Part shown: in pieces, positions 5,390 to 27,730 of the stretch
How the letters are laid out: every line of letters begins with the position of its first letter
Numbering within the stretch: the first letter of the stretch is position 1
Origin: a virus
Length of the DNA: 27,730 nt
UHGV virus genome: UHGV-0278671
Strand: one strand, 5' to 3'
Program-made: the position numbers and the translations under genes
Notes under the pieces: generated by a model
Seen by the model: only the letters and a program-made list of their open reading frames with translations
What the model was told of the DNA's origin: nothing
Database searches by the model: none

Positions 5390-5764
5390 TTAAAACAGCG
5401 AACCAAGCAGACCAAGACCAGCACCGATAACCTCATCCAGCAAGTAATCAACATCGCTACGCAGTACGACTATCTTCCCTTCGGCAGTTGTTAACCTGAC
5501 CTCAAGTAGATTTATCGCTTTTGTGTTTGCGGTGATTCTTGCGTCGTGATCAGCCAGTTCGACATCCTGTTCATCGTTTTTCACCTGAGCATCGTAAGCG
5601 CCCTGACCAGCCTGATTTGCCTTCCCGGCAATTGCGCCGACATCAGCCCCCTGATTAATGACATACAGCAGGTAAGACTGGCTGAATATATTGCGTGGCA
5701 AAATTGAAGCATCAAGCCGCGTAGCCTGAACCACAACAGGTGTATTGAGATTCGAATCAGCCAT
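5390..5764 (-). CDS. Tail needle protein (P22 gp26-like), unusually short at 124 aa
   Basis: [73 protein letters not shown] matches the P22 gp26 N-terminus as remembered; start is the internal ATG at 5764 overlapping the gp10 stop. Confidence 0.6.
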
Positions 5765-8527: not shown

Positions 8528-9864
8528 GTGGTAGCGACGTTGCTCGGCATGTTCTCAAGCTGCGACGCACCTGTAATTTGCTGAATAGCCGTTCCGGTGT
8601 ACTGCAATAGCCCAGCAAGAGCAGGAGGCATTTGTGTCGGAGGTGTCCAGCCAGCAACCTGAGCCTCTGAAATGACCGTTCCGTTTTTGTCCTTCTTGCT
8701 GGTCATGGGAAGAACTGCAGGTCTTTTCTTATTCCTCTCTGCCCAGTGATTCATTAATGGACCGGGAATGAAATCAACATCCACGATAGGAATGCCATCG
8801 CCGCCAGCCTGAGTAGCGTTATCTGCAATCATGGAAACCATCAGGTTCTCAAGACGCTGTGCATCCATCGCTTTTGCTGCGTGGCCTTCGATTCGCTCCT
8901 GATTATCAACAAATGAACGACGCCCATATACCGGGATGAGAGGAATATGTTCGCCCGGAATACGCTTCGGTTCTTCCAGCCATTCAGCGCCAGACAGAAG
9001 ACCGCAATAAACTCGGCGTTTCTTCACCGTTCGCTCGCCAATCAGTTCGAATGCACCATCGGTCAGCTCGTCGACAATATCTTTGATTTGCTCTTCATCA
9101 TAGATTGCCGTTTCTCCGCTGACAGGGTTACGCCATGCTGTGAGCTTTACCTTCTCTATGCGGACTTCGTAGTAGCGTCCAACATAGATGGCGTCAGGCG
9201 TTGACCAGTCATACTGAGTACCAGTGTCATCACGAGAAAGGCTTGCCGCGATGGAATCAGGGTATTCAGCCTCGAACGCTTTAGGCGTCATGGAGAACAT
9301 TTCCATAGCCCACATGGCATCAGAGCGGTCATATTGCTTGCTGTCCTGATCGAAGAAGACGCATGTCGCCGGGTCGTAAACAGGAAGAAGGCTGATGCGT
9401 CGCTGCTCGTTACTCGGATCCATTTCATCTTCGTAATCAGCGCACATGCGGAAACAACCGAATCCGCCCGTTACAGCATCATCAAATGCGTTATCACACG
9501 CTTCGCCACCGGATGTTTCCTGATAATCAGCGCGGAATTTGCCGTTCATCTTTTCGGCTAACGCTTCCGATGCCTTGTCATCCTTCGGCCTGAATTTAAC
9601 GCTGATGCGATTCTGTCGATACTCGCCAATGATGCGATCACATTCACGGGCAATCTTATTCAGTTCAAAGCGCGGGTAATGCTCAAACCTGCCTTCATCA
9701 AATGAGTAACCAGCGTTTGTGCTGCCTTCCCACTGTGCGCCGGACACCCGGACGAAACGTTGAGCCTCAATAATCTGCTTACGCATATCCTGCGTTGCTG
9801 ACCAGGCATTATCAAAGTTGCACAGCACCTTGCGATGCCAGTCAGTCATCTTTTTTTCTGCCAT
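8524..9864 (-). CDS. Portal protein (P22 gp1-like), apparently C-terminally truncated (446 aa versus ~700)
   Basis: KKRRVYCGLLSGAEWLEEPKRIPGEHIPLIPVYG matches the P22 portal IKRRRVY...AGEHIPIVPVFG region as remembered; the ORF ends where crown/barrel domains would follow and abuts the coat gene with no scaffold gene between. Confidence 0.6.
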   Translation of the reverse strand: MAEKKMTDWHRKVLCNFDNAWSATQDMRKQIIEAQRFVRVSGAQWEGSTNAGYSFDEGRFEHYPRFELNKIARECDRIIGEYRQNRISVKFRPKDDKASEALAEKMNGKFRADYQETSGGEACDNAFDDAVTGGFGCFRMCADYEDEMDPSNEQRRISLLPVYDPATCVFFDQDSKQYDRSDAMWAMEMFSMTPKAFEAEYPDSIAASLSRDDTGTQYDWSTPDAIYVGRYYEVRIEKVKLTAWRNPVSGETAIYDEEQIKDIVDELTDGAFELIGERTVKKRRVYCGLLSGAEWLEEPKRIPGEHIPLIPVYGRRSFVDNQERIEGHAAKAMDAQRLENLMVSMIADNATQAGGDGIPIVDVDFIPGPLMNHWAERNKKRPAVLPMTSKKDKNGTVISEAQVAGWTPPTQMPPALAGLLQYTGTAIQQITGASQLENMPSNVATT

Positions 9865-14166: not shown

Positions 14167-16047
14167 TTAATACTCCGTCACGTTTTCCTGTCGCCACGCC
14201 TCGTCATATTCCGATTTCGGCATATTGGCGATGTAGCTATAAGGCGATCCTGATTCAAGTTGCAGGAACTGGTGCGATTGCTCGTCAAGGAACAACGGGA
14301 CACCACCTTCCCAACCTTCGCCGTTACGTTGTTTTTCAAGCATCAAAACAGATGCCGGAGATGCCAGTAGCTGTTCGTCCTTCTCTGACATCTTTTCACC
14401 ACTCTGAACTCTCTGTAACGCTCTCTCGCGAGCCTTGTTACGCCAGATGATAAAAAGGTTGTCTGTCAGGTCTGTTATCGCTCCAGAGCCTTTTACGTCC
14501 ATTTTCCCGGTTGGTTTTTCTTCGCTATCTCCTTTTCTGGAGTGAGTAACGAGAATGACGTGGGAGTTTGTTTTGTTTTTGAAGTCACAAATCGAGTCAA
14601 CAAATGCTTTCTGCCCGTTATAGTCATCGTCACCTATGCCGCATTTCATCAGGCTGTCGATGATGAATAACTGGATGCCGTATCGGCGGCGAGCGTAGTC
14701 GAATATTTCGATCAGCCTGTCGGCTTTCGCCGTTCCAGTCAGGCCAAACACCCAAAGTCTTTCGTCATAAAATTTAAATGCAGAGTCAATTTCCAGCACT
14801 GGCGGCATCTTGCAGCACGTCGCCTGACGGGTAAGGCGCTTAAGGAGAATACCAGGCTTCAGCTCAAGTGACGCGATGCACGTCTTCACACCCTGACGCA
14901 TTGCCTCAAGTGCCATATGCCCGACAACCTCCGTTTTTCCGTGACCGTTCACACCATTGACCAGCGTCAACTCGGCCTCACGAAACTGGAATTTATCTGC
15001 CAGAGATTCCCACGGTGGATTAAACAGATACTGCTGCTTGCCGTAGAAAGCGTTGATAGTGTCCTGGTAAAACTCTCGCGCGCTGTAGAGTTCTTCAGGA
15101 TCAAAGTAGGATGCCGTGCCGATGTACTGCCAGATTTCATCCTCGGTAACACCGTTCATCAGGCATTCGTTGATGTCTTTGTACGGCAGAGTAACAAGAC
15201 GGCAACGATGTTCACCGAGTCGGCTTGCGATTTCCCTTGCGGCTTCACGACCAACATCATCAACGTCCATCGAGATGAATATTTCCTCAAACCTGTCGAG
15301 GTTGTGGTACTCAAACTCAATCCACTGTTGCTTAGCGCCTTTCCCTCCACCAAACGGCACGGATAACGCCGAGATGCCGTATTGCGCATAGCTCATACAA
15401 TCAATTTCGCCTTCGCAAAGTACAACCGCCCTCACGCCAGCGTCCAGAGCCTGCCATCCGAACAGACAAGGTTCGCAATCACCTTCTGCCATAATGACTT
15501 TCTTCCCGTCCGGGCGCTCAGTGCTGATTCGCTTGACCTGCAACAACTCACCATCGCGTTTGTACGGAAGCACCAGTGCATCAAGTTCTCGTTCTCCATT
15601 CCACACCTTGCCGCTGACAACCTCGTAGCGCTTTACGACTTCTGGCGATATGCCACGCGATTGCAGGTACTCAAGATGGGATTCTGTTCTGGTAACGTAG
15701 CGGGCGATTTTCTTGCGATCAGGTCTGGAGAATTTTTTCTCACGTTTGGCATCGAAATGGTGATCGTCATCCTTGATACCGAGAAATGCTTTCGCTTCCT
15801 GCATAGCCTGATGCAGGTTAATTCCACGACATGCCATCCACAAATCAAGCATGTCACCGCCGTCTCCCTCAGCGAAATCAGCCCATTTTTTCTTGCCGCT
15901 AAGGTTGACCTTAAGGCTGTTTCCCTTGTCACCATTGACGTTACCGGCAACCCACTCATGCCCCTCTTTCTTGCCGTTTGGCAACAGGTGCGGAGCCACC
16001 CTGTCAACCTGCGCCCAAAGCAGGTCGCTAAGTTCACTTGGCGTCAT
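14167..16047 (-). CDS. Bifunctional DNA primase/helicase
   Basis: 626 aa; Toprim-like acidic motifs (VVLCEGEIDCMS, ISMDVDDVG) followed by Walker A GVNGHGKT and Walker B-like LFIIDSLMK; directly downstream of the initiator gene. Confidence 0.8.
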   Translation of the reverse strand: MTPSELSDLLWAQVDRVAPHLLPNGKKEGHEWVAGNVNGDKGNSLKVNLSGKKKWADFAEGDGGDMLDLWMACRGINLHQAMQEAKAFLGIKDDDHHFDAKREKKFSRPDRKKIARYVTRTESHLEYLQSRGISPEVVKRYEVVSGKVWNGERELDALVLPYKRDGELLQVKRISTERPDGKKVIMAEGDCEPCLFGWQALDAGVRAVVLCEGEIDCMSYAQYGISALSVPFGGGKGAKQQWIEFEYHNLDRFEEIFISMDVDDVGREAAREIASRLGEHRCRLVTLPYKDINECLMNGVTEDEIWQYIGTASYFDPEELYSAREFYQDTINAFYGKQQYLFNPPWESLADKFQFREAELTLVNGVNGHGKTEVVGHMALEAMRQGVKTCIASLELKPGILLKRLTRQATCCKMPPVLEIDSAFKFYDERLWVFGLTGTAKADRLIEIFDYARRRYGIQLFIIDSLMKCGIGDDDYNGQKAFVDSICDFKNKTNSHVILVTHSRKGDSEEKPTGKMDVKGSGAITDLTDNLFIIWRNKARERALQRVQSGEKMSEKDEQLLASPASVLMLEKQRNGEGWEGGVPLFLDEQSHQFLQLESGSPYSYIANMPKSEYDEAWRQENVTEY

Positions 16048-16154
16048 GATTCCCTCAGATTGAGATTTTTAAACCAGAAATCGACAAACGAAATACTTAA
16101 CCAGCCGTGGTTATAACCAGCAACCAGTAGCGATTTGATTTTTGATTTCATGGT

Positions 16155-17015
16155 TCACCTGTCGAAAAACACGTAGCCAGTTTTCGATACGGTGATTGCG
16201 GATGATGGTTTGGATTGTGGTTGAATAGTTTCTGGCTTCTCGTCGTTCCAGCGTTGACCGTTCAGGTAGCTCGATGGTAACAACCTGTCGAATCCGAACT
16301 GCTTACCATTCCTGCATGCGATGTCTTCTGCCAGCATCGTGGCAAACTCGCTTGCCGTACCCCTGGTAGTTTTACGCCATTCCCTGAACTGTGTTCTGAA
16401 TGCCGAAGCTGCGTTTTTCTTCCCGGCTTTCCGCATGCCTGCACACCAGAATATTTCCTCGAATGCCTTGTCGGTTTCTTCGTGACGGTCATGTGATTTT
16501 TCACACTCCGTCCGAACACTTTCGGACATAGTGTTTTTATTATTTCTTTTTTCTTTTGTAATAGTTTCTTTTGTGTGTCCCTGTTTTGGTGACAGCGCTG
16601 TCACCGTTTTGGTGACACTTTTTGTCACCAATGCAGTGACATTATCACCAGAGTAGTGACACCCTTCGATTTGCCATTCTTCGATGTTCTTGTTAGGCCC
16701 GATTTGCTGGCCTTCGCGAAGGATAACCTTCATCGCGATAAGCTCATTCTTGGCCTTGTTTACCTTCTGTCTTGGCAGCCTGGTAATTTGAGCTAACTGA
16801 CTATCAGAAATGCGATCCATCTTTTTACCGTAGCCGTATGTTTTACGGCATATGGCGTGGGCAACCTTGCTCTGATTTTTCGTTAAATCTGCGCCGATAA
16901 GCTCTTCATACAGGGCATTTGCAAGACGGGTATAACCATCTTCAACTTCTGCCACACGACGCTCCACAGGCCGTTGTGAAGGCCTTAAATGTGTTACGGT
17001 TGCAAGATTACTCAT
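16155..17015 (-). CDS. Replication initiator (lambda O-like) with the origin inside the gene
   Basis: Position after cII; AAGGAG Shine-Dalgarno; the iteron array is translated in frame as a repetitive [18 protein letters not shown] linker. Confidence 0.75.
16524..16664 (-). repeat. Replication origin: four iterons plus adjacent AT-rich tract
   Basis: Iterons with GGTGACA/TGTCACC inverted cores at 16584-16605, 16606-16630, 16631-16650 and 16651-16664; AT-rich tract 16524-16580. Confidence 0.7.
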
Positions 17016-17480: not shown

Positions 17481-17538
17481 ATGTAAGTATTTCCTTAACA
17501 AATAAGAAGTTATGCGCATCAACTTATGCGCGTTGTAT

Positions 17539-17582
17539 TCCCGCATTTCGGCGGGAATGAGGACCATGACTGTTAAAGAGCG
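17539..17582 (-). promoter_or_regulatory. nutR: boxA CGCTCTTTAACA plus boxB hairpin
   Basis: On the minus strand between cro and cII: boxA cgctctttaaca (17571-17582) and boxB tcccgccgaaatgcggga (17539-17556), identical to the nutL copy. Confidence 0.6.
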
Positions 17583-17588
17583 GTGTTA

Positions 17589-17783
17589 CTATTTGTTTTT
17601 CTTGTTGCTTGGGAAAGGACGAACTTCCTCTCCAATCACACTGCCATCAGGCTTTACCGTAACCATGATGTTACGGCCTGCCAGAATGGCCTTGCTGATA
17701 GCGCACTGGATTACACCAAAGTCACTGGCTGCTTTAGCCTGTCCATGGATTTTGGCGTAATCGGCAAGTGTCATTCGAATCAT
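17589..17783 (-). CDS. cro: Cro repressor
   Basis: 64 aa [62 protein letters not shown] aligns with lambda Cro; GGAG 7 nt before ATG 17783. Confidence 0.85.
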
Positions 17784-17812
17784 ATGCACTCTCCGTTATT
17801 AACCATGAACAA

Positions 17813-17883
17813 AGAATACTACAGGTATTCAAAGCAATCAATACTCAGGGTATTTTTAGTTTAAGTACCTTAGCTATTAGAAT
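17813..17883. promoter_or_regulatory. OR operator region with divergent pR and pRM
   Basis: Operators AATACtacagGTATT (17815-17829), AATACtcaggGTATT (17840-17854), degenerate AGTACcttagCTATT (17864-17878). pR on minus: -35 TTGATT 17836-17841, -10 TATTCT 17813-17818. pRM on plus: -10 TAGAAT 17878-17883, ending ~7 nt before the cI ATG (near-leaderless). Confidence 0.6.
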
Positions 17884-17889
17884 TAAGCT

Positions 17890-18606
17890 ATGGAAAATAA
17901 AAAATCACTGACGACAGAACAGCTCGAAGACGCTAAGCGGCTTAAGGCTTTGTATGAGTCAAAAAAGAAAGAATTGGGGATAACCCAATACTCAATCGCT
18001 GATGAACTGGGTATCACCCAAGGAGCGGTAGGGCATTATCTTAATGGCAGAAACGCGCTAAACGTTGAGGTTGCATCTGGTTTTGCACGACTGTTGCAAG
18101 TCTCAATTGCTGATTTTAGCCAGTCAATTGCTGCCAAGGTTGCAGAACAGGCAGAAAGCCTTAAGAGCGATGCCAACGTAAGGTATGCAGGGGAATACAG
18201 AGCAGGAAAGAGGTATCCGGTGTTAAGCAGTATCCAGGCTGGCTCGTGGTGTGAAGCATGCGAACCATACACCATTAAAGACATAGATGTTTGGCTTGAG
18301 TCTGACGCGCATATTCAAGGTAATGCGTTCTGGCTTAAAGTGGAAGGTGATTCAATGACGGCACCGGTTGGGTTAAGCATTCCAGAGGGAACATTCGTTC
18401 TTTTCGATACCGGAAGGGAGGCGATCAACGGCAGCTTGGTCATAGCAAAACTTTCTGACTCTAACGAAGCAACATTCAAGAAGCTGATAATCGACGGCGG
18501 AAATAAATACCTTAAGGGACTTAATCCTGCATGGCCTCTCGTGCCAATCAATGGAAACTGCAAGATTATAGGCGTTGCAATTGAGACAAAACTAAGGCTG
18601 GTTTGA
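17890..18606 (+). CDS. cI: CI repressor (HTH plus LexA-like self-cleaving C-terminal domain)
   Basis: N-terminus LTTEQLEDAKRLKALYESKKKELGITQ and HTH; C-terminal FWLKVEGDSMTAP...FKKLI matches lambda CI FWLEVEGNSMTAP...FKKLI (catalytic Ser/Lys context). Confidence 0.9.
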   Translation: MENKKSLTTEQLEDAKRLKALYESKKKELGITQYSIADELGITQGAVGHYLNGRNALNVEVASGFARLLQVSIADFSQSIAAKVAEQAESLKSDANVRYAGEYRAGKRYPVLSSIQAGSWCEACEPYTIKDIDVWLESDAHIQGNAFWLKVEGDSMTAPVGLSIPEGTFVLFDTGREAINGSLVIAKLSDSNEATFKKLIIDGGNKYLKGLNPAWPLVPINGNCKIIGVAIETKLRLV

Positions 18607-18623
18607 TCACGCAAGGGGCGATT

Positions 18624-18992
18624 ATGGTTGGAACCGCTATAGCAAGCTTTTTTGGGATGTTGGCAATCTCGACAATTTACGGCTTAGCGCATGCTTTTAT
18701 TGCGAAATCTCTATCAGAAAAAATAAGCCAGGCTTGGGCGCATAGATCAGCTCGTTTCATGATTCTAGTGATCATAGCAATACAAGGGATATCTGCATTT
18801 ATCCTCTATGGTTCAAGCTTATACCTGTTGTATCAAGGCGCGACATTTACGCCTTACACCAGTGATTACGGAACTCTATACGATGGTAGTGAAGACATCT
18901 CTATGGCTTGGATTGTCTTTGGTTTATCTATGGCCGTGTCTGTTGTAGCAGATATCATTAAGGTAATTCTCGTCTTAACCTTCGCTGACTAA
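18624..18992 (+). CDS. Polytopic inner-membrane protein co-transcribed with cI (rexB/sieB position)
   Basis: AAGGGG 6 nt before ATG 18624, 18 nt after the cI stop; about four hydrophobic helices in 122 aa; no similarity to lambda RexB recognised. Confidence 0.55.
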   Translation: MVGTAIASFFGMLAISTIYGLAHAFIAKSLSEKISQAWAHRSARFMILVIIAIQGISAFILYGSSLYLLYQGATFTPYTSDYGTLYDGSEDISMAWIVFGLSMAVSVVADIIKVILVLTFAD

Positions 18993-19123
18993 CCTATAAT
19001 CCCGGCAGCAATAGCTATCGGGATCCACTTCACATATCCCGCATAAAAAGCACTGAACAAGCAGACACCGAAAAAATAAATATCCTTTGTATTCATTTAC
19101 TTATCATTATTTCATCAAAAATA

Positions 19124-19165
19124 AATACCTTGGGTATTTACACAATAAAATACCTACAGTATTCT
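19124..19165 (+). promoter_or_regulatory. OL operators overlapping pL
   Basis: Perfect operators AATACcttggGTATT (19124-19138) and AATACctacaGTATT (19149-19163); -35 TTTACA 19137-19142, 17-nt spacer, -10 TATTCT 19160-19165. Confidence 0.6.
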
Positions 19166-19211
19166 TTAGCCATCAGCAGGACGCTGGTAGCCAAACGGAA
19201 CATATTGGCAG

Positions 19212-19252
19212 GCTCTTTAACATTGATGGGATTGTCCCGCCGAAATGCGGGA
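19212..19252 (+). promoter_or_regulatory. nutL: boxA GCTCTTTAACA plus boxB hairpin
   Basis: boxA 19212-19222 matches the rrn-type boxA consensus; boxB tcccgccgaaatgcggga 19235-19252 (5-bp stem CCCGC/GCGGG), identical to nutR. Confidence 0.6.
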
Positions 19253-19359
19253 ACCAAAGAGTAGTTGGCTTTGGGGTGACGTGAAGTGCAGCTGCACGAC
19301 GGCAACCGGAAGATAAGCACCCGGCGCGTCACCTCCAAAGTCAATCATCGGAGATCAAC

Positions 19360-19632
19360 ATGACAGTAGTCATTACATATCTGGCTGACGATAACACCAG
19401 AAATCGCCGCAGAGCACGCAGACAGGCTCAACGTGAACAGGCAATGCAAGAGCAGCGACTGGCGCGAAAAATTGCGCTAAAGCTCTCTGGTTGCGTCAGA
19501 GCAGACAAAGCAGCATCACTCGGAAGCCTTCGCTGCAAGAAGGCAGATGAATGCAGTGGAAGTATTTGCCTGCCAGAAGTTGCGCTTTTCGCAGCTGGTC
19601 ATCGTACAAGTAAGCAGGTTACAGCGAGGTAA
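19360..19632 (+). CDS. N: N-type antitermination protein
   Basis: Arginine-rich motif NTRNRRRARRQAQREQ near the N-terminus; C-terminus LPEVALFAAGHRTSKQVTAR resembles P22 gp24 as remembered; first gene after pL/nutL. Confidence 0.75.
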   Translation: MTVVITYLADDNTRNRRRARRQAQREQAMQEQRLARKIALKLSGCVRADKAASLGSLRCKKADECSGSICLPEVALFAAGHRTSKQVTAR

Positions 19633-26379: not shown

Positions 26380-26571
26380 ATGACCGATACCAGCCTGATT
26401 CCTGAGAAAGAAGTGATGAACAAGCTCGGTGTTTCATCACGTCAGACAATCTGGAACTATACCAAACGGCACGGATTTCCGAAGCCAGTCAGAACCCACC
26501 CCAAATCATACCTTCGTGAAGCTGTTGAGGGGTGGATTCTTAACGGTGGCGTTAATCAGAAATGCTCCTGA
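26380..26571 (+). CDS. alpA: AlpA-family regulator/excisionase
   Basis: 63 aa with HTH KEVMNKLGVSSRQTIWNYTKRHGFPKP typical of the AlpA/Xis family; GGAG before the ATG. Confidence 0.65.
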   Translation: MTDTSLIPEKEVMNKLGVSSRQTIWNYTKRHGFPKPVRTHPKSYLREAVEGWILNGGVNQKCS

Positions 26572-27730
26572 TGTGCCAGAACAATTTATCAGCGTGAAGC
26601 TCATACGCTTTGCGCTGAGCCTCTATCCAGTCGTGTTTATTGTATACGGACATTATCCCGCCAAGTTCATGACCGAGCATTCGCTCAGTAACATGAGGCT
26701 CGACATTCATCTCGGACAGACGTGTAACAAGCGTTCTTCTGAAATCGTGTGTTCGCCAGTAACCTAGATCCATCCCTCCCCTTATTCTATTTACGAATCG
26801 GTTGGCTGCAGCGATGCTGATCGGTTTGTTTATGTCTTCTCCAGGGAAAAGAACATCATTGTACGTTGTCATGGCCTTTTCGAGGAAAGGCTTAATTTGT
26901 TCGAAGATTGGACGGCGGATAACATTACCCATCTTGCTATGCTCTTTCGGTACGGTCCATACGTTTTCCAGCAGGTCAAATTCTGTCTTTTTTGCCAGCC
27001 TAAGCTCTGAGAGCCTCGCCCCCCACAGCATAAGCATCTGATGAAGTAGCTTATTTGACGTAGACGCACGGCTTCTTTCAATAGCAAGCCAAATCTTAGC
27101 CAGTTCGTGATACGACAGTACCCGATCCCCTACCTCAGCGCGGGAGCCGAAGTCCCTTGGTTGGATGCTCATAATTGCGCAACTATCTATCAACTGACGC
27201 CGCATGCACCAACTTATTGCTGATCTTAGTTGACTTAGCACCTGCCTTGCTCGGCGTGGATTATCTTTTTCTTCTTCGGTAAGCAGGTCAACCCATTGCT
27301 TAACCGTGATAGAAGATGCCGGACGATTAGGAAAGGCGTCATGCATGCGCTTCATAACCGTTGATCGGTAAAGTGCCTGGGTCTTTTCTCTGAGAGTTGT
27401 AGAGACGTAGTTGTCGAACCAGTAGTCGAGACACTGGGCGACCGTCATGGAGTTCTCCACCTTCTCTTCAAAATAAGTGCGTGGATCCGTTCCTGAGAAA
27501 TAGAGCTTTCGCAAGTCAGCAGTGATCTGTCTGGCATCCTTCAAAGACAGGGATGGGTATCGACCAAGCCCAAGTCGATTAGGCTTGCCATGCCAGCGAT
27601 AGCGGTACTGGAACTGGATGACCCCCTTCGGTGAAATTCGTACGCTGAGGCCATCGGCATCAGCCACTTCTTGTGGGCCCGAATATGGTTTACCATAAAT
27701 AGTACGCAGTTTTGTGTCGCTTATAGCCAT
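26552..27730 (-). CDS. int: Tyrosine-type site-specific integrase (P4-like arm-binding N-terminus)
   Basis: 392 aa; N-terminal LRTIYGKPYSGPQEVADADGLSVRISPKGVIQFQYRYRWHGK; C-terminal catalytic residues in HDFRRT...LGHE...YNKHDW; start codon is the last three bases of the window. Confidence 0.9.
   Translation of the reverse strand: MAISDTKLRTIYGKPYSGPQEVADADGLSVRISPKGVIQFQYRYRWHGKPNRLGLGRYPSLSLKDARQITADLRKLYFSGTDPRTYFEEKVENSMTVAQCLDYWFDNYVSTTLREKTQALYRSTVMKRMHDAFPNRPASSITVKQWVDLLTEEEKDNPRRARQVLSQLRSAISWCMRRQLIDSCAIMSIQPRDFGSRAEVGDRVLSYHELAKIWLAIERSRASTSNKLLHQMLMLWGARLSELRLAKKTEFDLLENVWTVPKEHSKMGNVIRRPIFEQIKPFLEKAMTTYNDVLFPGEDINKPISIAAANRFVNRIRGGMDLGYWRTHDFRRTLVTRLSEMNVEPHVTERMLGHELGGIMSVYNKHDWIEAQRKAYELHADKLFWHIRSISD

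Follow-up and report, generated by a model that had tools for sequence, protein, structure and literature searches.

The immunity region

The window analysed here is the whole 27,730-nucleotide sequence of viral genome UHGV-0278671, with positions counted from its first letter. The elements of its immunity switch are listed below in order of position, with operators placed on no strand.

17539-17556, minus strand: nutR boxB, of the same sequence as the nutL boxB (TCCCGCCGAAATGCGGGA); annotated as nutR in HK620
17589-17783, minus strand: cro, encoding a 64-aa lytic repressor of the lambda Cro fold (Pfam Cro PF09048, E 3.6e-26)
17813-17841, minus strand: predicted promoter pR, with -35 TTGATT (17841-17836), a 17-bp spacer and -10 TATTCT (17818-17813); matches pR of the HK620 GenBank record
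17814-17830: candidate operator OR1, 17-mer GAATACTACAGGTATTC, perfect core, over the pR -10, centred at -68 from the cI ATG; 'OR1' in the HK620 annotation
17839-17855: candidate operator OR2, 17-mer CAATACTCAGGGTATTT, perfect core, over the pR -35 and adjoining the pRM -35, centred at -43 from the cI ATG
17855-17890, plus strand: putative promoter pRM, with a weak -35 TTTAGT (17855-17860) and -10 TAGAAT (17878-17883), then 6 nt and the cI ATG
17863-17879: candidate operator OR3, 17-mer AAGTACCTTAGCTATTA, two core mismatches, over the pRM -10, centred at -19 from the cI ATG
17890-18606, plus strand: cI, encoding a 238-aa repressor with an N-terminal helix-turn-helix (Pfam HTH_3) and a C-terminal S24 self-cleaving domain (Pfam Peptidase_S24)
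18624-18992, plus strand: hkaS-like gene for a 122-aa membrane protein, co-oriented with cI and in the position of lambda rex
19078-19094: proposed true OL3, 17-mer AAATATCCTTTGTATTC, one core mismatch, 45 bp from OL2
19123-19139: candidate operator OL2, 17-mer AAATACCTTGGGTATTT, perfect core, over the pL -35; in the HK620 annotation
19137-19165, plus strand: predicted promoter pL, TTTACA (19137-19142), 17 bp, TATTCT (19160-19165); HK620 annotates pL here
19148-19164: candidate operator OL1, 17-mer AAATACCTACAGTATTC, perfect core, over the pL -10; in the HK620 annotation
19235-19252, plus strand: nutL boxB hairpin, TCCCGCCGAAATGCGGGA; annotated as nutL in HK620
19360-19632, plus strand: N antiterminator, first gene of the pL operon (Pfam N_peptide, E 1.3e-13); N of HK620

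The family membership of the two repressors is settled by PDB and Pfam matches. CI matches lambda CI (3bdn) over its full length with an E-value of 2.9e-52, and the features of self-cleavage are present and align with those of lambda CI: a QAG cleavage motif (Ala-Gly), the serine of GDSMT, where the alignment reads G(D/N)SMT, and the lysine of FKKL. Five isolated phages (mEpX2, HF4s, phi296, 611R6 and Stx2_EH1904) have exactly the same CI (100% identity), and those of HK620 (A66T), HK630 and HK140 differ from it by one substitution each. Cro matches the lambda Cro structures 1cop and 6cro at E 5e-19 among PDB sequence matches and is identical to HK620 Cro. The hkaS-like protein, which carries the name hkaS in the HK620 annotation, contains three hydrophobic segments, matched no Pfam family and is found in all homoimmune phages examined. 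The divergent cI (plus strand) and cro (minus strand) enclose the three OR sites in a 106-bp gap, which is the lambda-type layout.

The repeat motif and its position on the predicted promoters

An exact search of the window for AATACNNNNNGTATT returned four matches, at 17815-17829, 17840-17854, 19124-19138 and 19149-19163. The first two lie in the cro-cI gap and the last two past the end of cI, ahead of N. The centre-to-centre spacing is 25 bp in each pair (17822 to 17847 and 19131 to 19156), just as the original prediction had it; the distance from OR2 to OR3 is 24 bp. The same prediction spoke of perfect copies of a 15-bp palindrome; inverted symmetry is perfect in the 5-bp arms only, and the N5 core is asymmetric. 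The motif search that it proposed for the window and for related phages yielded four perfect sites here and the same sites in homoimmune phages.

The arrangement is far from random. Four perfect instances of the pattern AATAC-N5-GTATT were seen in the 27.7-kb window where 0.02 would be expected, and none of 100 shuffled sequences contained four or more. With one mismatch or fewer, there are five sites (0.72 expected), all five inside OR or OL; the fifth strong site, AATATCCTTTGTATT at 19079-19093, had been overlooked earlier. At two mismatches or fewer the count is near chance (18 against 10.9 expected), and the OR3 candidate AGTACCTTAGCTATT (17864-17878) is among these sites. With the OR and OL sites set aside, the remaining two-mismatch sites, for example at 17525, 18779 and 18820, are about as frequent as chance would give, and we do not consider them operators.

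The hexamer coordinates of the predicted promoters agree with the proposal that the operators overlap the -35 and -10 elements of pR and pL. pL is the sole sigma-70-like site that the promoter scanner found in 17500-19400; pR scores 8 of 12 against the consensus and was missed by the scanner. A degenerate third OR copy lying over a near-leaderless pRM was likewise borne out: AGTACCTTAGCTATT, with two mismatches, overlaps the predicted -10 TAGAAT, and 6 nt separate the end of this hexamer from the cI ATG at 17890. The region aligns with the lambda sequence TAGATT-TAACGT-ATG, and the pattern TAnnAT is kept 6-7 nt ahead of the ATG across related loci; a leaderless pRM transcript for cI is plausible from the 6-nt distance. 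OL and OR are separated by 1.2-1.3 kb. On the evidence of sequence, the assignment of AATAC-N5-GTATT as the CI/Cro operators of an immunity switch is well supported.

The HK620 immunity group

The segment 17500-19400 is 98.7-99.2% identical to HK620, mEpX2, HK630, HK140, HF4s and several Stx phages. HK620 and five further phages match positions 17784-17895 exactly, and OR is identical in eight homoimmune phages. Seven of these eight also have the same OL1, OL2 and 19079-19093 site without any change, while HK140 has one change in the OL2 spacer. Repressor, OR/OL operators and Cro all place the window in the HK620 immunity group.

The original prediction had gone further, taking the operator to imply a distinct immunity specificity, while allowing that the novelty would go if the operator belonged to a known group. 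The idea that this operator set is a new, previously unrecognized specificity has some points in its favour: the consensus is unlike the lambda, 434 and P22 operators, and a literal full-text search placed the six operator sequences in no paper of the searchable literature. We nevertheless regard it as extremely improbable. The HK620 GenBank record AF335538, deposited in 2001, annotates OR1-3, OL1-3, pR and pL at the corresponding positions, so that the region (98.7% identical) is the HK620 module and its operators those of a known group, as given by an annotation only. The same module occurs in mEpX2, HK630, HK140, HF4s, phi296/phi367 and Stx2c phages. Among 5426 complete E. coli genomes, 146 (about 2.7%) contain 80% or more of it. 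By sequence, then, the operators are an ordinary, already known feature, the HK620 immunity module annotated in 2001.

HK620 may already be in the Cordes-lab Cro/OR database (Hall et al., 2005). The genome of coliphage HK620 was described by Clark et al. (2001, J Mol Biol 311:657, as cited in PMC2629481). A search for binding, footprinting, reporter or cross-immunity data on HK620-group CI or Cro found none in the searchable literature.

Probable revision of OL3 and tIMM in the HK620 annotation

The third OL site and its neighbour are where we depart from the HK620 record. The annotated OL3 (19101-19117) has mismatches at 6 of 10 core positions and was rejected as an operator; where the homoimmune phages vary locally, they do so only within this stretch or right beside it. 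The site at 19079-19093, invariant among the eight homoimmune phages, is probably OL3 in place of the annotated position. A third OL site stands at the same -45 offset in nine related loci (L009, L017, L018, L019, L026, L027, L036, L069 and one more), and the one in the Kluyvera locus L036 is perfect.

The annotated 'tIMM' (19074-19104) was rejected as an intrinsic terminator, with a fold of -0.5 kcal/mol and a z of +0.39 that are not thermodynamically credible; a terminator scan found none at these coordinates.

Co-occurrence of the CI recognition helix and the operator

Since the homoimmune phages diverge by only about 1%, conservation among the eight of them is uninformative alone, and more distant relatives were compared. 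The helix-3 sequence (T/S)QGAVGHY(L/I/M)NGR was present in 26 of 80 loci of CI relatives, and all 26 carry the motif at about -67/-43/-19. These loci come from at least 12 enterobacterial genera and from Microbulbifer. No perfect site was found upstream of cI in the 54 loci with other helices. The loci were partly ascertained by a peptide pattern containing TQGAVGHY and are therefore not a blind sample; the 54 negatives come from the same scan. TL-2011c and other Stx2a-type phages, whose CI N-terminal domain is 54% identical, served as negative controls, and the motif is absent from them.

Across 25 non-redundant loci, half-site positions 2-6 carry 1.4-2.0 bits each and positions 1, 8 and 9 about none, so the spacer varies freely. 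Mean core mismatches rise from 0.24 at OR1 to 0.48 at OR2 and 1.52 at OR3, and OR3 is perfect in 0 of 25 sets. Together with the two core mismatches of OR3 in the window, this is a sequence proxy for graded CI affinity, by which OR3 may be the weakest site.

These comparisons bear on whether the repeats might be bound mainly by another factor, or be a promoter-associated sequence, with the CI/Cro sites elsewhere. The -10 TATTCT of both pR and pL does lie in the half-site GTATTC, and the repeat could partly reflect promoter conservation. However, OR2, OL2 and OL3 contain no -10 and yet keep both half-sites, and across genera both arms are conserved and the spacer is variable only where CI has the QGAVGHY helix. 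The 106-bp gap between cro and cI contains no other repeated dyad. A further point against comes from the Cro 'evolutionary code', which pairs Gln at H1 with A2, Ala at H3 with A5 and Lys at H6 with C6 (PMC6649833): applied to the helix Q-C-A-I-S-K it predicts A2, A5 and C6, and all three are observed, a modestly discriminating test (about 1 in 64 by chance) because the three positions are common to lambda. We give another binding factor hardly any credence and keep to CI and Cro as the proteins that would bind these sites.

The sites are real, non-random and positioned on predicted promoters; the proteins belong to the lambda CI/Cro family; the module matches that of functional phages; and across genera the site is found together with the helix. 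A wider reading is put forward tentatively, with more doubt than confidence: that the pairing of QGAVGHYLNGR with AATAC-N5-GTATT is a widespread, undescribed specificity class, a near-neighbour of lambda extending from E. coli to Microbulbifer, and that HK620 OL3 and tIMM are to be corrected, the 'tIMM' being the OL3 palindrome.

Proposed working of the switch

What we have is very probably an HK620-group immunity module in a defective P22-like prophage, most likely lambda-like in its working. By analogy with lambda, CI dimers would recognize the 17-bp sites, with half-site A2-A3-T4-A5-C6-Y7, through a helix-turn-helix of the lambda type. Cooperative binding at the strong pairs OR1/OR2 and OL1/OL2, each 25 bp apart, would occlude the -10 and -35 elements of pR and pL, and CI on OR2 (centre -43) would be placed to activate the weak leaderless pRM. 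At high CI concentrations, the imperfect OR3 (centre -19) would be filled and pRM shut off. OL3 at 19079-19093 and the OL-OR distance of 1.2-1.3 kb would permit lambda-like looping. Cro, with its lambda Cro fold, would act on the same sites to turn pRM off after induction, and the Ala-Gly site and Ser/Lys dyad of CI appear to be kept for RecA-stimulated self-cleavage.

An intact switch sequence in a decayed prophage

The description of the element as an otherwise decayed prophage is confirmed by four internal deletions relative to CUS-3, through which the lysis genes, Q, the scaffold gene and parts of the terminase are lost. These losses could also suggest that the switch is an inert relic, with CI no longer expressed or needed and the operators kept only through recent acquisition: lysis, Q, scaffold and packaging genes are gone, and about 1% divergence from free phages leaves little time for an immunity region to decay. 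Against this, five viable phages have the very same CI, and Cro is the same as in HK620. Both window-specific substitutions in cI (17979 and 18513) are synonymous, and no change affects pRM, OR, OL, pL, pR, N, nutL or nutR. The O and primase-helicase genes also remain as full-length ORFs; retention of CI may well be under selection because their derepression would probably be harmful. We judge an inert relic improbable and favour a switch that is still functional. A defective prophage with intact repressor and operators should confer on its host immunity to homoimmune phages, including Stx2c-converting phages and phi296/phi367.

As a discovery, the locus is minor, since the HK620 module was sequenced and annotated in 2001. 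Its use lies in the comparative consensus A2-A3-T4-A5-C6-Y7 and the probable correction of OL3 and tIMM in a reference annotation, and in a natural specificity variant of the lambda family that could serve the study of protein-DNA recognition rules or provide an orthogonal repressor/operator pair.

Comparison with known systems

HK620 is the closest of the known systems. Its cII-cro-OR-cI-hkaS-OL-N segment aligns without indels at 98.7% nucleotide identity, there is no difference in the OR region, OL1 or OL2, and the same OR1-3, OL1-2, pR, pL, nutL and nutR are annotated. The window prophage differs in being deleted and non-inducible and in its replication module (O and a 626-aa toprim/DnaB-like protein). 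At a greater distance, the half-site recurs in Serratia phage vB_SspS_OS31 and in prophages of several genera, Tatumella, Pantoea and Kluyvera among them. These share the 25/24-bp OR spacing, an OL1/OL2 pair accompanied 45 bp upstream by a third site, and identical CI and Cro recognition helices, whereas their CI is 54-84% identical and spacers and flanks have diverged. Some related lineages have OL3 at -21 rather than -45, and some have a Cro that is not of the lambda type.

With 434 and P22, the window shares the general logic of the lambdoid switch, and the HK620 annotation of 2001 calls its cI 'similar to 434 and L cI'. Their operators are unlike the window's in length and symmetry. That of 434 is a 14-bp ACAA...TTGT, and that of P22 is 18 bp long with its symmetry axis between base pairs (PMC6649833). 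PDB sequence matches at E<=1e-3 are dominated by lambda CI and Cro and include no repressor or Cro structure of 434 or P22. Best matches to lambda CI and Cro, and a 17-bp operator with its centre on a base pair, place the switch outside 434 and P22 immunity.

Lambda is the nearer relative. Its CI and Cro are homologous to those of the window (E 3e-52 and 5e-19), its operators are likewise 17 bp long and centred on a base pair with three OR and three OL sites, and its OR centres stand at -66/-42/-19 from the cI ATG against -68/-43/-19 here. The leaderless pRM can be aligned between the two (TAGATT-N6-ATG in lambda, predicted TAGAAT-N6-ATG here), the half-sites agree at positions 2, 5, 6 and 7, and OR3 would be the weakest site here as in lambda, to judge by its mismatches. 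In contrast, the distance from OL2 to OL3 is 45 bp here against 20 bp in lambda, that from OL to OR is 1.3 kb against 2.3 kb, and a small membrane protein takes the place of rexAB. With no more than 53% identity in the CI N-terminal domain, the window phage type and lambda should be heteroimmune.

The original prediction was right that the consensus differs from those of lambda, 434 and P22, although 'distinct' needs qualifying, the operator being a close variant of the lambda 17-mer. The lambda half-site is TATCAC and that of the window AATAC, the main difference falling at positions 3-4, which are A-T here and T-C in lambda; positions 1 and 8 are unconserved here. All 100 OR1/OR2 half-sites of the family have T at position 4, where all 12 lambda half-sites have C. 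The combination that marks imm-lambda, half-site T-A-T-C-A-C-C-G with the lambda recognition helix, is thus not that of the window, where position 3 is A. Helix 3 reads QGAVGHYLN in CI here against QSGVGALFN in lambda, and QCAISK against QSAINK in Cro. The residues unlike lambda include S45G and G46A in CI and S28C and N31S in Cro. Residues 45 and 46 of lambda CI contact base pairs 3-4, as do residues 28 and 31 of lambda Cro (the latter from PMC6649833), so the protein differences coincide with the operator difference. If the proposed class is real, it would differ from lambda in specificity only at base pairs 3-4 and the residues that contact them, and would amount to a natural specificity swap.

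Operator sites and promoters of the switch

An exact search of the whole window for AATACNNNNNGTATT returned exactly four perfect matches, starting at 17815, 17840, 19124 and 19149, against an expectation of 0.02; none of 100 dinucleotide-preserving shuffles reached four. This is the count given in the original prediction, which placed two copies of AATAC-N5-GTATT at OR and two at OL. OR lies between cro and cI, and OL downstream of cI and before N. The predicted 25-bp centre-to-centre spacing was measured at both OR1/OR2 and OL1/OL2, the second OR interval being 24 bp, and the predicted degenerate third copy is AGTACCTTAGCTATT (17864-17878, two mismatches). Allowing up to one mismatch gave five sites in the window (0.72 expected), all inside the OR or OL clusters; the fifth, with one mismatch, is AATATCCTTTGTATT at 19079-19093. 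At up to two mismatches the number of sites in the window was near chance (18, with 10.9 expected), and this set includes AGTACCTTAGCTATT, the OR3 candidate. The OR cluster occupies the 106 bp that separate cro from cI, and the OL-to-OR centre distance of 1.2-1.3 kb would be compatible with lambda-like looping.

Features of the switch (window positions)
17589-17783, minus strand: cro (Pfam Cro, E 3.6e-26)
17841-17836 and 17818-17813, minus strand: predicted pR, -35 TTGATT, 17 bp, -10 TATTCT
17814-17830: OR1, lambda-style 17-mer
17839-17855: OR2, lambda-style 17-mer
17863-17879: OR3, lambda-style 17-mer, contains AGTACCTTAGCTATT
17878-17883, plus strand: predicted pRM -10, TAGAAT, overlapping the right half of OR3 and ending 6 nt before the cI ATG
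17890-18606, plus strand: cI (Pfam HTH_3 and Peptidase_S24)
18624-18992: hkaS-like membrane-protein ORF, 122 aa, three hydrophobic segments, downstream of cI and before OL
19123-19139: OL2, lambda-style 17-mer
19137-19142 and 19160-19165: predicted pL, -35 TTTACA, 17 bp, -10 TATTCT
19148-19164: OL1, lambda-style 17-mer
19360-19632: N antiterminator, beyond the OL cluster

The promoters are predicted from sequence, pL being the sole sigma-70-like site detected by a promoter scanner in 17500-19400. Predicted pR and pL are alike in having the -10 within O1 and the -35 overlapping the edge of O2. There is no Shine-Dalgarno sequence between the predicted pRM -10 and the cI ATG, and TAGAAT lines up with lambda TAGATT-TAACGT-ATG; the lambda pRM transcript is leaderless. 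The hexamers thus fit the proposal that the sites overlap the pR and pL elements and that the third copy overlaps a near-leaderless pRM. The boxB hairpins of nutR (17539-17556) and nutL (19235-19252) are identical, both reading TCCCGCCGAAATGCGGGA on the transcribed strand, in agreement with the HK620 annotation. The hkaS-like ORF matched no Pfam family in the Pfam search; it takes the position of lambda rexAB, accompanies the immunity module in every homoimmune phage examined, and may have an exclusion or membrane role expressed from the prophage.

State of the prophage

Judged by Pfam coverage, the coat, portal and large-terminase genes seemed truncated and the lysis cassette absent, and alignment to the intact P22-like phage CUS-3 mapped four internal deletions.

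Deletions relative to CUS-3
5425-5429: ~1.47 kb, injection and head-assembly genes lost
6470/6471: ~0.43 kb, within a head-completion gene
8530-8533: ~2.0 kb, coat N-terminus, scaffold and portal C-terminus lost
10752/10753: ~4.5 kb, large-terminase N-terminus, small terminase, Rz/Rz1, lysozyme, holin and most of Q lost

With these losses, neither cell lysis nor DNA packaging is possible for the element. Its CI is 100% identical to that of mEpX2, HF4s, phi296, 611R6 and Stx2_EH1904, its Cro matches HK620 Cro exactly, and the only two window-specific cI substitutions are synonymous. These observations bear out the picture of a complete switch in a decayed prophage, and we strongly infer that the switch is still functional.

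On the minus strand cro is followed by cII, an O-type initiator and a toprim/DnaB-like protein. Because the replication module (14167-17015), with its O-type initiator and 626-aa toprim/DnaB-like primase-helicase, is unlike HK620 O/P, the comparison shows mosaicism directly adjoining the conserved immunity module. A P4-type tyrosine integrase (Arm-DNA-bind_3 and Phage_integrase; 26552-27730, minus strand) is oriented opposite to pL transcription, with its start codon at the window end; the window contains no tRNA gene.

The HK620 immunity group

Over 17500-19400 the window shares 99.2% identity with HF4s, 99.1% with mEpX2, 98.8% with the Stx phages phi296 and phi367, 98.7% with HK620 and HK630, and 98.5% with HK140 and a pair of Stx2c-converting phages. 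Of 5426 complete E. coli genomes, 146 contain at least 80% of this region. The HK620 GenBank record (AF335538) carries OR1, OR2, OR3, OL1, OL2, OL3, pR, pL, tIMM, nutL and nutR as features. Since HK620 aligns to the window with zero indels, its OR1-3, OL2 and OL1 map exactly onto the window 17-mers. Given this near-identity and these features, the operators are part of an already sequenced and annotated immunity module. Of the distinct immunity specificity originally proposed, the difference from the lambda operator stands; a new specificity is unsupported, because the operators of the HK620 group have been annotated since 2001. The proposal had allowed for its operator belonging to a characterised group, and it is annotation rather than experiment that removes the novelty: the literature searched held no experimental study of CI or Cro binding for this group. 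The interpretation of the sites as a CI/Cro immunity switch is supported. Our additions are modest, namely a cross-genus consensus, a link between CI helix and operator, and a structural rationale for the change at base pairs 3-4; a probable further one is a corrected placement of OL3 and tIMM relative to the reference annotation.

The module is shared by Stx2c-converting phages and the EHEC phages phi296 and phi367 (records LC645408, LC645426, PV189400 and PV189406), and the cryptic prophage might give its host immunity to these phages. A 223-bp stretch of MT713136.1 (253437-253659), the 254-kb jumbo-phage record of Aeromonas phage AP1, is 100% identical to window 17501-17723, within the E. 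coli lambdoid cII-nutR-cro region; it lies at the very end of the record and is probably an assembly contaminant or chimera.

Comparison across distant relatives

OR is identical in six of eight homoimmune phages; as these are too alike to be informative, we turned to distant relatives. In Serratia phage OS31 the N-terminal domain of CI is 84% identical to that of the window, and the recognition helices of CI and Cro are unchanged; the OR sites of this phage have 0, 1 and 1 mismatches at 25/24-bp spacing, in spacers and inter-operator DNA unlike those of the window. A scan of species-representative genomes yielded 80 CI-relative loci. The motif occurs at about -67, -43 and -19 in all 26 loci whose CI helix 3 reads (T/S)QGAVGHY(L/I/M)NGR, a helix favoured by ascertainment as the search peptides included TQGAVGHY; none of the 54 loci with other CI helices has a perfect site upstream of cI. 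The 26 loci span Lelliottia, Siccibacter, Enterobacter, Tatumella, Lonsdalea, Serratia, Pantoea, Providencia, Proteus, Yersinia, Pectobacterium, Scandinavium, Kluyvera and Microbulbifer (43-45% CI identity).

Across 25 non-redundant OR sets, half-site positions 2-6 hold 2.0, 1.7, 2.0, 1.84 and 1.42 bits of information; a pyrimidine occupies position 7 (0.77 bits), and next to no information resides at positions 1, 8 and 9. Mean core mismatches rise from 0.24 at OR1 to 0.48 at OR2 and 1.52 at OR3, which is perfect in 0 of 25 sets, the defect mostly falling at position 6 in the half nearer OR2. Nearly every set also has a TAnnAT hexamer 6-7 nt upstream of the cI ATG. Lambda-like autoregulation would predict just such an OR3, always imperfect and lying over a leaderless pRM.

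Five loci, L015 (Tatumella punctata), L039 (Yersinia nurmii) and L070, L072 and L073 (Microbulbifer), retain the QGAVGHY helix and AATAC-N5-GTATT operators, and a lambda-type Cro was not found upstream; this suggests that another family displaced Cro while operator specificity was kept. Six further CI relatives (L029, L030, L032, L033, L038 and L040) have a different N-terminal domain, the helix ITKGAVSHWLNARR and one related palindrome, TATAC-N5-GTAT(T/C), whose distance upstream from the repressor start is 36-51 bp, and may form a neighbouring specificity class.

Proposed position of OL3

The OL3 annotated in HK620 corresponds to window 19101-19117 (TTATCATTATTTCATCA), which mismatches 6 of 10 core bases; locally, the homoimmune phages are polymorphic only within this segment or beside it. 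The site at 19079-19093 is invariant among these phages, at a distance of 45 bp from OL2. Nine related loci also have a third site at precisely the -45 offset, perfect in Kluyvera (L036) and one mismatch away in Tatumella (L017); another sub-lineage has a genuine third site at -21 instead. The HK620 'tIMM' (19074-19104) folds at only -0.5 kcal/mol, no better than shuffled sequence (z +0.39), and the symmetry it shows belongs to the operator palindrome. On these grounds we propose 19078-19094 as OL3: the reference OL3/tIMM annotation (19074-19117) appears misplaced, and 19079-19093 is the likelier site. Directly 3' of the hkaS stop codon, a strong hairpin at 18999-19024 (-13.7 kcal/mol, z -3.7), which has no U tract, may mark the true 3' end of the cI-hkaS transcript or stabilise it.

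Relationship to lambda

In the 2001 annotation of HK620, cI is likened to 434 and L cI. Comparison with solved structures aligns the full length of CI with lambda repressor (3bdn, E 2.9e-52) and pairs Cro with lambda Cro (1cop, E 4.7e-19), with no 434 or P22 proteins among the matches. Relative to the cI ATG, the sites are centred at -68, -43 and -19, compared with -66, -42 and -19 computed on a lambda record. Comparing half-sites position by position, lambda T1-A2-T3-C4-A5-C6-C7-G8 against R1-A2-A3-T4-A5-C6-Y7-N8 here, we assign the operator as a lambda-type 17-mer centred on a base pair, its essential difference lying at positions 3 and 4.

In lambda repressor, Gln33, Gln44 and Asn55 read A2 and the G opposite C6, and Ser45 reads the G opposite C4. 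The first three residues are conserved in the window CI, in which Ser45 is changed to Gly and Gly46 to Ala. The Cro recognition helix is Q-C-A-I-S-K, compared with Q-S-A-I-N-K in lambda, the two substitutions being S28C and N31S (lambda numbering). The Cro 'evolutionary code' associates H1 Gln with A2, H3 Ala with A5 and H6 Lys with C6 (PMC6649833); since the window helix has all three residues, it predicts A2, A5 and C6, all of which are observed in the operator. The two lambda Cro residues replaced in the window helix are Ser H2, reported to contact base pairs 4-5, and the Asn reported to contact base pair 3 (PMC6649833). By homology, CI and Cro would both be altered where the operators are altered, and the system is best described as a specificity variant of the lambda family.
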